This document shows, one piece after another, positions 4,709 to 11,513 of a stretch of DNA of 11,513 nt. Positions within the stretch are counted from its first letter, which is position 1, and each line of letters opens with the position of its first letter. The translations under genes and the position numbers were made by a program. Source of the DNA: Okeania sp. SIO2B9 (GTDB lineage Bacteria; Cyanobacteriota; Cyanobacteriia; Cyanobacteriales; Microcoleaceae); NCBI RefSeq assembly GCF_010672505.1, contig NZ_JAAHGK010000067.1, forward strand, positions 1 to 11,513, read 5' to 3'. The notes under the pieces are model-generated. The model made no database searches. It saw only the letters and a program-made list of their open reading frames with translations, and was not told where the DNA came from.

Positions 4709-4938
4709 TTATAGATATAGGTTTAATAATAATACCATTTCTCTATGAATTTGCGCTGAATAAAAGATGATAATTATCAGAATAATAAGGTCAGGGCAAA
4801 AATTATTAAGTGCATCGTTACAAAGAAATGATATTAGATTGAATAAAGTTTTAGGTAATAGGTATTAGGTTCAATTGAAGATTAAACTTTAACCAGTTAT
4901 AGAAACCGTAAAGACAGTCATATTTTCTACACTTATAA

Positions 4939-5380
4939 CCTGACACCTACCAGGAAGGGTAGGGAGGATAAATCATATATTTAGGAATTAGGCATTTTTG
5001 AGTTCTAAACACTACATATCTGTAACGTTATAGTTTTTCTCATTATATATAGTCTGTTTACCTAAATTCGGAACTATAACGTTATAGTTTTTCTCGTTAT
5101 ATATAGTTTGTTGACCTAAATACTGATCGCCTGACAACTGCCACTCAAGGAAGGTAGGGACAATAAATCATATATTTAGGACTTAAGTATTTTTGAGTTC
5201 TAGAGACTACATATCTGTAACGTTATAGTTTTTGCTCGTGATATATAGTCTGTTGACCTAAATACTGATCGCCTGACAACTGCCACTCAAGGAAGGTAGG
5301 GACAATAAATCATATATTTAGGAATTAGGGATTTTTGAGTTCTAGAGACTACATATCTGCAACGTTATAGTTTTTGCTCA
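4939..5380 (+). repeat. Tandem array of ~143-bp units (3 full plus 1 partial), each with a TATATT box and a CTGTAACGTTATAG hairpin followed by T5; candidate tandem sRNA genes
   Basis: Units are 4939-5072, partial 5073-5129, 5130-5271 and 5272-5380. Units 2 and 3 are more than 90% identical. Hairpin plus T-run occur at 5020-5038, 5074-5092, 5215-5233 and 5357-5375. TATATT occurs at 4976, 5171 and 5313, about 40 nt upstream of each hairpin. Confidence 0.6.
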
Positions 5381-5389
5381 CCATATACA

Positions 5390-5480
5390 TAATAGTAGTC
5401 GAAGCAAAGGGCACGGACATATCAAAAGCTGAAAACTAAGACAATGCAAATTTTTTTGTCCTTCGCTCCTTCCTTCTTCC
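5390..5480. repeat. Copy B of the ~90-nt dispersed structured element
   Basis: AATAGTAGTCGAAGCAAAGGGCACGGAC...AAGACAATGCAAATTTTTTTGTCCTTCGCTCCTTCCTTCTTCC. It sits directly after the tandem array and about 80 nt 3' of the TerB-like gene (minus strand). Confidence 0.55.
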
Positions 5481-8492: not shown

Positions 8493-8527
8493 GGAGTAGT
8501 CAGTAGTCAGTAGTCAGTAGTCAGGAG
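8493..8527. repeat. STRR-like heptamer tandem array (AGTAGTC x4-5)
   Basis: Direct read: ggagtag tcagtag tcagtag tcagtag tcaggag. Confidence 0.8.
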
Positions 8528-8552: not shown

Positions 8553-8684
8553 AATTTGGTATTACAAAGAAACAAAGAATATGGAAGAGATAAAAAAGTA
8601 GAAACTTGCTCAATAGACATATAGATATCTCCAGAAAAGAGATAACAGGTAACAGGAAGAAATAATAGAAATCATCAATTATTT

Positions 8685-8736
8685 CTCCCTACTCCCCTAC
8701 TCCCCTACTCCCTGCTCCCTACTCCCTACTCCCTAA
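8685..8736. repeat. STRR-like 7/8-mer tandem array (CTCCCT ACTCCCCT ACTCCCCT ACTCCCT GCTCCCT ACTCCCT ACTCCCT)
   Basis: Direct read. It overlaps the last codons and the stop of the MVP-like reading frame. Confidence 0.8.
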
Positions 8737-10481
8737 ATTGGGATTAATCAACCCATTAGCCGTACCAAAAAGATTAATTGGACTCTTACCATCAGTAATT
8801 AAAACACTCTGAAGACCAAGCCCCTACAACAACCTCGCCTGCATTTATGGGCCAGCTTGAGCGATCGCCCGAATTGTCTCAGCCCCCAAAGCCTCCACTT
8901 TTTGCTGAAACTCAGTAGCAGTAATTTCAGCCATTTGCCTTGCCTTCTCAATCTCTAAATTATTCAGTGTCTGCTGATGGGCTAACTCAGTCTCCTGACG
9001 CGCCCTCAACTGAGCCATCTCAGCCTCATGGCGAATCCGTGCTGCTTCTACTTCCTGCTGCGCCAAATTCACCGCCAACTGGCCTTGAAAAGGAGATAAC
9101 ATATAAGCTTGAGGTCCATTGACTAATTTTAGTTCCCCACTTTGAACATCCCGTACATATATACCTTCATTTTTGTCTAGGGGAATAGCCTGAAGTTTTT
9201 CTAATACTTCTAATTCCACTGGGGGAATATAATCTCTTGGCCCAGTAATCATCCATAAATCTCCTGGTTGCCGAGTAATAACGTTTGCTCCTGTTCCCTC
9301 GGTGAAAGTTTCCTCAACTCTGATTAGGAGTGCTTCTTGTTCACCAAGAATATAGACCTTTTTAATTCCTGTTTCTAAATCTTCTCCTGGGTGCAAAAAG
9401 AAAGATGTTCTGCCCTGACGCACTTCTTTCATACCCCACTGCGGTTTACCATCTGCATCTATGGGATTAGTTACTATGCACCATTCGCGATCGCTTAAAG
9501 TAGTGATTTTGACTTCTCCCACTACTTCTTCATAAACGTCGGGAATATGAATTTCAGCATCTGCAAAAGTAACTAACTATTCATATCCCGCTTTGCGTTG
9601 CTGACCAAAAATATCAGTAAAAGTCCGTTTTGCTTTTAGATGTAGTGCTTGACGTTCGGTTAATACATAGGCATCAATAGTATCGACAATTTCTTCATCT
9701 ACTCCAGGCAAATAAGCACCTTCTTCCCTGACCAACCATTATTCCCCAGTTCTACGTCTGTTACCTTGACGATCTATACAATTTTGTCGTGCCAGCAGTC
9801 GTAAGGCTTGGTTAGGTTTAATTATTTTAGCTATAACTGTGACTACCACTTCAACTTCTACCCTGGGAGTGTAAGTTCCTGGCCCCTCAAATAACCATTC
9901 ATCCCCTGTCGTACGAGTGACAGTTTGAGACTCTCCTGCAACGATAACTGTATCAGTAAAATCTCGTATTGCTTTGAGACGTAGAGTTTGGTTTGTGTCA
10001 ATTACTTGTAGTTGAGTTACATCTTCTTCGAGTATTTCTCCTGGATATAGTGGGAAAGGGTCTTGAGCAAAGCGAATTTCCAGATCGCCATATTTGAGTC
10101 TAATTTAACCATACTCATCGGCCACAAGTTGATCTGAACTATAGCAATGTGCGCTGGCATATTTACACATTATTTTTTGTACACCTTTTCTAAAATGCAC
10201 TTTGAACTGGGCCTTGTAAATACCTGAGCGCTCATTGCTATATTTCTTAGTACAGGGTTAGCTGCTACACAATAATGGCGAGGTGGAACTACAATTGTCA
10301 GTTGTGGTTGTCAGACTAACCTTTCTGCATCTCCAAGGGTAATGGTTTGAGGGCCTATTTCTAGTCTGATAACACCAGTGTTATTGTCAAGAACATGAAT
10401 ATACTGTTGTGGCTTCAGGAGAATTATACCATTGTTCTCTATTGTAATTGGATATTCTGTGGTACTTTTTATTTTACTCAT
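8719..10481 (-). pseudogene. Major vault protein (MVP) homolog, disrupted by a MITE insertion and multiple in-frame stop codons
   Basis: Translation of the minus strand from ATG 10481 gives MSKIKSTTEYPITIENNGIILLKPQQYIHVLDNN... (human MVP ...PPYHYIHVLDQN...). Further on it reads ...[21 protein letters not shown]..., ...[22 protein letters not shown]..., ...SFFLHPGEDLETGIKKVYILGEQEALLIR..., ...QAIPLDKNEGIYVRDVQSGELKLV... and a cap-helix C-terminus ...[49 protein letters not shown]. All of these align residue-for-residue with vertebrate MVP. In-frame stops are TGA 10311-10313, TAA 10105-10107 (at the Q of GQVRL), TAA 9739-9741 (E of TGEEWLV), TAG 9577-9579 (W of GEEWLVT), TAA 8845-8847 (E of AGPEMQ) and TAG 8824-8826 (Q of LLQSL). 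A frame shift is caused by the 101-bp insertion at 10141-10241. The ORF-track entry 8845..9522 is only the largest intact fragment. Confidence 0.85.
10142..10240. mobile_element. 99-bp MITE-like insertion with ~15-bp terminal inverted repeats (TAGCAATGWGCGCT) and an apparent TA target-site duplication
   Basis: The left end is tagcaatgtgcgct. The reverse complement of the right end is tagcaatgagcgct, so 13/14 positions match. It is flanked by ta (10140-10141) and ta (10241-10242). The core is AT-rich and non-coding. Removing 101 bp (element plus one TA) rejoins ...HYCVAANPVLRN|SSDQLVADEYGQIRL... This is colinear with human ...[27 protein letters not shown]... with no gap and no frameshift. Confidence 0.6.
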
Positions 10482-10544
10482 AGTTTAATAGTTTTGTAAC
10501 TAGAAATCTTAAGTTATTCATTATCCATTATTAATTATCTCTTA

Positions 10545-11513
10545 CTATCGTCGCCAAATTTTAATAGTTCTGTCTTTACTACCACTAGCAATACTATTAC
10601 CATCAGGACTAAAAGTAACTGTATAAATCTCATCTTTATGCCCGGTCAAAGTACTAACTAATTCTCCTGTTTCTAAATCCCATATCTTAATATTATTATC
10701 CTTACTGCCACTAGCAATATATCGACCATCTTCGCTAATATCAACAGATACAACTTCAGCAGTATGACCAAGAATAGTTTTGATTAATTCTCCTGTTTTT
10801 AAGCTCCAAATTTTAATAGTATTATCGTAACTCCCACTCACTATTTTTTCCCCATCTGGACTAATATCAACAGACCTAATTACTCCTTCATGTCCAGTCA
10901 ATGTATTAATTAATTCTCCAGTATATAAATCTTCAATTTTTATAGTTTGATCTGCACTACCACTAACCAATATTCTGACGTCAGGACTAATAGCAATAGA
11001 ATAAACTACATCTGAGTGATCGGGGAAATTAAAAATTAAGAAACCTGTTTCTAAATCCCAAACTTTAACTGTTTTATCTCCACTAGCACTAGCAATTGTT
11101 TGATTATCAGAACTCATAGCAACTGACCAAACAGGTGCCCAATGTTCAAATACTCGAAATAATTCTCCTGTTTCCAAATTCCAGATCATTACTCTCCAAT
11201 CATAAGTACCTACCACTAATTTAGTACCATTATTATTCAAAGCAACTGACCAAATTGGAGAATCATCTGCAGCTAATGTGTTGATAATTTTTCCTGTAGG
11301 AACTTCTAAAATTTTTACCGTTGTGTCTCTACTTCCAGTAACTAAAGTTTTGCCATTAGAACTAAATGCAAGAGTACCTATAGAAGAATTAAACCTAGAC
11401 AAATCTTCAACTTGATAATTCTGCCAATTTAGACCTTGTTGACAATTTTGTAAAAGAGATTGAGCTTCAGCAAAAATGCTAGATTTTTCACTAATTAAAG
11501 TTCCTTGATTGAT
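10545..11513 (-). CDS. WD40-repeat protein (5' end beyond the window; at least 7 WD repeats present)
   Basis: Repeated GH...SV.FSPDG..IASGS.D.TIKIWDL units with WD/W-dipeptide ends. The frame stays open from 11402 to the window edge at 11513, so the 'M' at 11402 in the ORF track is an internal TTG. Stop is TAG at 10545-10547. Confidence 0.85.
   Translation of the reverse strand: MNQGTLISEKSSIFAEAQSLLQNCQQGLNWQNYQVEDLSRFNSSIGTLAFSSNGKTLVTGSRDTTVKILEVPTGKIINTLAADDSPIWSVALNNNGTKLVVGTYDWRVMIWNLETGELFRVFEHWAPVWSVAMSSDNQTIASASGDKTVKVWDLETGFLIFNFPDHSDVVYSIAISPDVRILVSGSADQTIKIEDLYTGELINTLTGHEGVIRSVDISPDGEKIVSGSYDNTIKIWSLKTGELIKTILGHTAEVVSVDISEDGRYIASGSKDNNIKIWDLETGELVSTLTGHKDEIYTVTFSPDGNSIASGSKDRTIKIWRR

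Follow-up and report, generated by a model that had tools for sequence, protein, structure and literature searches.

In an 11,513-nt stretch of DNA from Okeania sp. SIO2B9 (positions 1 to 11,513 of contig NZ_JAAHGK010000067.1, assembly GCF_010672505.1; hereafter "the window"), a 99-bp element interrupts a gene for the major vault protein (MVP). We are confident that this element is a MITE (miniature inverted-repeat transposable element) derived from the IS630 family of insertion sequences (IS), that it duplicated its TA target, and that it landed in an MVP gene that had already been inactivated. Its length, its inverted repeats, the TA duplication with the corresponding empty site, the dispersed copies and the match of its ends to those of an IS630-family element all agree with this identity. 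A first-pass annotation, made from the sequence alone, had described a 99-bp segment with inverted termini between TA dinucleotides in an MVP-like gene and had assigned it to the MITEs of the IS630/Tc1-mariner type. Coordinates and termini were confirmed, and the assignment is upheld by the terminal inverted repeats, the TA duplication, the multiple copies and the existence of an IS with the same ends. The range first given (10137-10244) does contain the element with its TA flanks and is a few bases too wide, since the element and both TAs occupy 10140-10242 (Table 1).

On the plus strand, the locus reads ..GATCTGAAC TA / TAGCAATGTGCGCT..(99 bp)..AGCGCTCATTGCTA / TA TTTCTTAG... The outer 14-nt termini show complementarity at 13 of 14 positions, and with the flanks counted the inverted repeat reaches 32 nt at 81%. 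The terminus pattern, for which 0.1 chance occurrences were expected in the window, was seen only at the two ends of the element, and neither the scan for this pattern nor a profile search revealed a second copy in the window. The element has no coding capacity (no open reading frame, ORF, of 50 aa or more inside); a scan for promoter- and terminator-like sites within it found none, and Rfam and tRNA scans of the window gave no matches. Because of its inverted repeats, the element is predicted to fold into a long hairpin (DNA, -17.6 kcal/mol, z -4.2; RNA, -35 kcal/mol, z -5.4).

The insertion is present in some Okeania strains and absent from others. The filled site recurs in Okeania sp. SIO1F9 (L066), which is 98.7% identical to the window across 11.1 kb, and in Okeania hirsuta GCA_003838225.1 (L067), which is 99.84% identical in the MVP half; both agree with the window base for base across 8650-10500. 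Okeania sp. SIO2G4 (L069), with flanks 99.06% and 99.73% identical, has exactly 101 bp fewer, and its site reads ..CTAAGAAA TA GTTCAGATC.. (..AAGAAA-TA-GTTCAG..), with one TA. This is the empty site, GAACTATTTC, that had been predicted for a related strain, and its single TA, together with the TA flanks of the family copies described below, bears out the proposed target duplication. The intact, distant orthologues of Okeania sp. SIO3I5 (L065) and of the JARPNX metagenome-assembled genome (MAG; L064) are empty too. Presence and absence at the exact site between ~99% identical strains shows, if indirectly, that the element was recently mobile.

Judged from its sequence, the interrupted gene is the pseudogene form of an MVP orthologue, with amino-acid identities of 88% and 85% to the intact 924- and 926-aa orthologues of the Okeania clade. 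Removing 10142-10242 (101 bp) rejoins the minus-strand frame (..NPVLRN/SSDQLVADEYG..), and the initial statement that excision restores the frame is correct at this junction. It does not extend to the rest of the gene: the repeat domains are present, and the rejoined frame is broken by six in-frame stops and lacks the shoulder domain and the start of the cap helix, which were taken out by a 948-bp deletion (Table 1). The residue after ADEYG, initially read as Q, is itself one of these stops (TAA, window 10107).

The order of these lesions can be read from SIO2G4. This MITE-free strain has the same 948-bp deletion and four of the six stops, and it lacks the two others as well as the MITE. Because the four stops and the deletion are common to a strain without the element, we conclude that the MITE hit an already dead gene. 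Most parsimoniously, the deletion and the four stops came first, the lineages then split, and the MITE and the two remaining stops were acquired in the lineage of SIO2B9, SIO1F9 and O. hirsuta. Since the gene was already inactivated, the insertion was neutral in a decaying gene and not the cause of its inactivation. The first-pass annotation had implied a different scenario, in which the MITE was the primary lesion of a working MVP gene and the stops and the deletion came later. Read from upstream, the insertion does shift the frame and leads to a stop 23 codons into the element. However, SIO2G4 combines a clean single-TA site with four of the six stops and the 948-bp deletion, the strains with the MITE have two further derived stops, and the scenario would require a footprint-free excision and two stop reversions in SIO2G4. 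We therefore consider it very unlikely that the MITE was the first lesion.

The element belongs to a multi-copy family, as the first-pass annotation had anticipated. When one genome per species was searched for both termini at a spacing of 57-87 nt, 63 exact-terminus loci were obtained across 13 genomes (Okeania, Dapis, Trichodesmium and other cyanobacteria), with ~1-13 loci per genome. There were 13 in O. hirsuta PAB10Feb10-1, 11 in Okeania sp. SIO3B5, 10 in Dapis sp. M229 and 5 in Okeania sp. KiyG1, followed by SIO2B3, SIO1I7 and Cyanobacteria bacterium P01_H01_bin.35 (4 each), SIO2F4 and a Trichodesmium MAG (3 each) and the remaining genomes (1-2 each). The MVP site of O. hirsuta PAB10Feb10-1 is not among the 13 exact-terminus hits of that genome. 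The copies have unrelated flanks, lie in both orientations and measure 98-104 bp; identity to the consensus is 89-100% for 60 of the 63, the lower scores of the other three being due only to wrong orientation in that alignment. They fall into two subfamilies, of 100 bp and 99 bp, and the termini are conserved in all copies. The window copy, a member of the 99-bp subfamily, is 91% identical to the overall family consensus. Metagenome contigs give 34 more copies, so that genome and metagenome loci together hold at least 99 distinct full-length copies, with TA on both sides in 94 of 99.

All hits that carry a family or genus name belong to the Microcoleaceae (Okeania, Dapis, Trichodesmium), and a MAG labelled simply "Cyanobacteria bacterium" supplies four loci. 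The marine filamentous cyanobacterium Okeania groups with the Microcoleaceae, outside the Nostocales. The host is Okeania sp. SIO2B9, a member of the Microcoleaceae, and not one of the Nostocales, which the first-pass annotation had brought up. A distant blastn search of PLSDB plasmids, those of Nostocales included, gave no match to the element, and a scan of viral contigs for the terminus gave 0 matches.

A second MITE family, of ~112 bp, has the same 26-nt left terminus with another interior and a variant right end (..GCGCACAGCGCTA/TA). Its copies lie at L001:7707, L016:3561, L030:6725, L036:1535, L040:832, L044:1344 and L051:695, and the L044 copy holds a further nested small element ending GGACTTACGCA. 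In Okeania sp. SIO1I7, a TA-flanked composite of 276 bp (L035:4283-4558), made up of an IS-type terminus, 176 bp and a full 100-bp MITE, breaks a TnpB/IS605-OrfB-like gene.

We searched for an IS that shares the ends of the MITE. No full-length IS was found in the 63 genome loci, either as paired termini 700-2600 bp apart or by clustering of repeated ORFs; the extra termini there belong to the second MITE family and the composite, and the repeated ORF family is TnpB-like and unrelated. Scanning metagenomes for the 26-nt terminus gave 108 stretches, two of which (L109 and L093) have inverted termini 1.4-1.5 kb apart. Their ends read TAGCAATG[T/A]GCGCTGGCATATTTACATACTAC, the two ends matching at 31 of 32 positions, and their ORFs match Pfam HTH_Tnp_IS630 and DDE_3. 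The ORF with the DDE domain in L109 scores 127.9 bits against the NCBIfam model transpos_IS630, "IS630 family transposase" (cut-off 100), and in the partner transposase the second catalytic D and the E are 35 residues apart, as read from the sequence. A protein of 291 aa (P0145), annotated as a partial "IS630 family transposase" of unclassified Okeania, is 87% identical to the reconstructed transposase and has one uninterrupted frame; it occurs in Okeania MAGs other than SIO2B9 and is labelled "partial" because its gene abuts a contig end. An IS-type terminus lies directly beside the P0145 gene in the Okeania MAG contig L178, and the same right terminus is seen ~400 bp downstream of related DDE_3 genes in ocean metagenomes.

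The counterpart of the window MITE's left end is the IS end that lies upstream of the transposase gene, and the right terminal repeat of the MITE has A at position 9, as in the right end of the IS. The same T versus A difference at this position distinguishes the two ends of the IS and those of the MITE. The matches of both MITE ends to the IS (26/26 and 21/26 nt) and this position-9 pattern therefore fit the derivation of the MITE from the two ends of an IS. The IS630-family parent with the same terminal repeats that had been postulated for the element is thus represented by L109, L093 and P0145, all from other genomes or metagenomes. Between the HTH and DDE parts of L109 (~1255-1305), a 51-bp palindromic mini-insertion (GCGAGTGCCT..AGGCACTCAAGAC) lies at a poly-A run, and L093 has a frameshift at the same A-run of the transposase gene.

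By description, the partner IS resembles ISY100 (ISTcSa, from Synechocystis PCC 6803) and the IS630 family in its helix-turn-helix and DDE_3 domains, its D-35-E spacing, its inverted repeats of ~26-32 nt and its TA flanks, whereas the window element differs in being 99 bp long and in having no transposase gene. Most IS630-family elements are ~1.1-1.2 kb long, in contrast to the 1.4-1.5 kb of the partner IS. The ISY100 transposase alone binds the terminal repeats (through an N-terminal helix-turn-helix domain), inserts at TA and duplicates it, and constructs with just 30 bp of each end transpose like the full-length element (PMC2170065). Since ISY100 needs only its terminal repeats, the 99-bp element, with repeats of 26 nt, has all the known cis requirements. 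By analogy with ISY100, we infer that the MITE is mobilised in trans by an IS630 transposase. The transposase would bind the terminal repeats via its N-terminal helix-turn-helix domain and would excise the element by double-strand cuts; the 3' ends of the element would join staggered positions at a TA, and host repair would then duplicate the TA. The target hit here was repeat 2 of an MVP gene, which four nonsense mutations and the 948-bp deletion had already inactivated.

Several points weigh against this account. The mobilisation in trans has been deduced and not observed, and both L109 and L093 are degenerate, with frameshifts, a stop and the 51-bp insertion. No more than 21 of 26 nt in the right terminal repeat of the MITE agree with the IS end. 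The IS630 copies and transposase come from outside SIO2B9, whose coverage is this 11.5-kb contig, and the order of events in the MVP gene rests on parsimony across four strains.

The element could instead be another palindromic repeat (REP- or PATE-type) moved by an IS200/IS605 TnpA or TnpB system. Its long hairpin fold would suit such a repeat, and no protein recurs more often in the fetched loci than TnpB-like ORFs (9 loci). However, IS200/IS605-type elements are known to lack both terminal inverted repeats and a target duplication, whereas here the TA is duplicated and an IS630 element has the same ends. Moreover, TnpB is not placed as a partner in the two loci checked: it lies ~2.4 kb off in L041, and in L035 its gene is broken by the element. 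Movement by an IS200/IS605 system is thus highly improbable, and we retain the IS630-derived MITE. TnpB/IS605-OrfB-like ORFs of ~400 aa were seen in Okeania and Dapis loci (L041, L025, L062, L018, L013, L037 and others), with no linkage to the MITE.

Two further explanations have a negligible probability. A native, lineage-specific loop of 33 aa, or an insertion of intron or intein type in the MVP gene, is suggested by nothing except the position inside a coding region; it is contradicted by a length of 101 bp, which is not divisible by 3, by the same sequence at ~100 unrelated sites and by the absence of an Rfam intron match for the element. None of six aligned MVP homologues (two of the Okeania clade and four of other cyanobacteria) has extra residues there. 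The first-pass annotation had named as an alternative a native 33-aa loop in intact orthologues, and the cyanobacterial orthologues are of the same length and have no such loop; the empty orthologues and the aligned homologues therefore refute it. An assembly or chimera artefact, conceivable for a short MAG contig, is effectively excluded because three assemblies that were deposited separately (SIO2B9, SIO1F9 and O. hirsuta GCA_003838225.1) have the identical filled site.

The vault gene has fared differently across the genus. The locus is syntenic in Okeania, SIO3I5 included (kinase-WD40, MVP, Tmemb_14, DUF815 ATPase, TerB, thioesterase). MVP is intact in two lineages (SIO3I5 and the JARPNX MAG) and almost wholly deleted in SIO2C9 (L068), SIO2C2 (L188) and SIO2B3 (L189), where at most the last ~250 bp are left. 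Given this near-complete deletion in three other lineages, the gene is being lost across much of the genus, and we conclude that the bacterial vault gene is repeatedly lost in Okeania. Bacterial MVP homologues in cyanobacteria have already been described (PMC3762200; bioRxiv 10.1101/872010). Both intact Okeania-clade MVPs have a 54-aa insertion that partly duplicates the adjacent ..GxKEVRQGxTSFF.. motif and that the window pseudogene and the MVPs of other cyanobacteria lack.

In the window lineage, MVP has undergone 60 synonymous, 32 missense and 6 nonsense changes (pN/pS 0.18), and the MITE is the sole frameshifting indel of the pseudogene. Of the non-synonymous changes, 16% are nonsense, versus 6-8.5% expected under four mutation spectra; nonsense changes are thus over-represented about two to three times, with a binomial P of 0.03-0.10 that would be lower if some missense changes are older than the inactivation. 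All but one of the six nonsense changes run from G/C to A/T. The excess may reflect mutation bias and chance, or selection against a truncated product. A stronger version, which we regard as unlikely, holds that the decay pattern is not due to chance: selection in Okeania would be shutting off a truncated but assembly-competent vault protein, and, separately, the MITE/IS630 pair would still be transposing. If this were true, such selection, taken with the independent near-complete loss of MVP in sister lineages, would suggest that bacterial vaults carry an active cost.

Cyanobacterial MITEs are well known, some of them with empty and filled sites and some inside genes (PMC3184786, PMC10969869). 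The Nezha MITE (Zhou et al. 2008), as presented in PMC3184786, is ~130-170 bp long, occurs in Anabaena and Nostoc and shares its repeats with ISNpu3. The window family is likewise a cyanobacterial MITE with IS-shared terminal repeats, flanking direct repeats, a stable hairpin and empty and filled sites in close relatives. By description it is nevertheless set apart from Nezha by its length (98-104 bp, the window copy having 99) and by its occurrence only in Okeania, Dapis, Trichodesmium and their relatives. A relationship to the Nezha-like elements mentioned in the first-pass annotation is thus not supported, as both size (99 versus ~130-170 bp) and host range (Okeania, Microcoleaceae, versus Nostocales) differ. 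According to PMC3184786 and PMC10969869, mcy genes of Baltic Anabaena were inactivated by MITE insertions (Fewer et al. 2011). There too, natural strains are polymorphic for a MITE within a protein-coding gene of a cyanobacterium, but the mcy MITEs are the inactivating lesion, whereas the window gene was already a pseudogene. The Correia elements of Neisseria are MITEs of ~100-155 bp with terminal repeats of ~26 bp, a TA duplication and a hairpin when transcribed. We know of no autonomous parent for them, in contrast to the IS630-family parent identified for the Okeania element, and the hosts are unrelated.

A string search of the literature for the terminal sequences gave one irrelevant match and no published description, and we found no papers that link MITEs to Okeania and its relatives. 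The present results add a documented MITE family and its IS630-family parent to the marine filamentous cyanobacteria Okeania, Dapis and Trichodesmium, and the presence/absence polymorphism could serve as a strain marker. They leave the understanding of MITEs unchanged, and the insertion has no functional effect on a vault gene that was already dead. The decay and loss of MVP across most Okeania lineages may interest those who study the origin and function of vaults.

Table 1. Coordinates of the MITE, its host gene, the IS630-family elements and neighbouring features (window positions unless a locus is named).
Feature	Coordinates	Strand	Remarks
Left TA of the duplicated target	10140..10141		Empty site in SIO2G4 has a single TA
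99-bp MITE, 99-bp subfamily	10142..10240	+	nhmmer 104 bits, E 1.4e-30 against the family profile
Left terminal inverted repeat, TAGCAATGTGCGCTGGCATATTTACA	10142..10167	+	26/26 nt identical to end A of IS630-family elements L109 and L093
Right terminal inverted repeat, read inward, TAGCAATGAGCGCTCAGGTATTTACA	10215..10240	-	21/26 nt identical to the IS end
Right TA of the duplicated target	10241..10242		TA on both sides in 94/99 family copies
MVP pseudogene hosting the MITE	8721..10481	-	ATG at 10481; Pfam Vault, Vault_2 and Vault_4 matches
Stop TGA (ancestral TTA, Leu)	10311..10313	-	Specific to the MITE lineage; SIO2G4 has T at 10312
Stop TAA (ancestral CAA, Gln)	10105..10107	-	Common with MITE-free SIO2G4
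Stop TAA (ancestral GAA, Glu)	9739..9741	-	Common with SIO2G4
Stop TAG (ancestral TGG, Trp)	9577..9579	-	Common with SIO2G4
Junction of the 948-bp in-frame deletion	9089..9090	-	From alignment with intact genes; same junction in SIO2G4 and SIO1F9
Stop TAA (ancestral GAA, Glu)	8845..8847	-	Specific to the MITE lineage; SIO2G4 has G at 8847
Stop TAG (ancestral GAG, Glu)	8824..8826	-	Common with SIO2G4
IS630-family element	L109 369-1874		1506 bp; TA on both sides
IS630-family element	L093 4-1419		1416 bp; TA on both sides
Ser/Thr-kinase-WD40 gene	10545-11513	-	Also L065:4473-6854 and L066:3089-5464
54-aa insertion of intact MVPs	L064:5253-5414, L065:9017-9178 (approximate)		Alignment columns 347-401

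In Okeania, the Ser/Thr-kinase-WD40 gene lies upstream of MVP as a conserved neighbour. Its propeller also matches the Pfam beta-propeller models of TEP1 and recalls this eukaryotic vault partner.

The window and the otherwise >99.5% identical O. hirsuta GCA_003838225.1 differ in three segments. Two of them, 4743-5468 (726 bp) and 145-444, are missing in O. hirsuta, and the third, 1998-2486, is swapped there for ~100 bp. A 142-bp tandem repeat (5077-5379, 2.1 copies, 95% matches) lies within the 726-bp segment, which is present in SIO1F9 and may itself be a further repeat that moves or expands. Intergenic tandem repeats of heptamers (TAGGGAA, CTACTCC, AGTAGTC and CTCCCTA) occupy 2132-2163, 2439-2463, 8495-8524 and 8685-8735 of the window and resemble the short tandemly repeated heptamers of filamentous cyanobacteria; one such array lies just past the MVP stop codon and varies in length from strain to strain.

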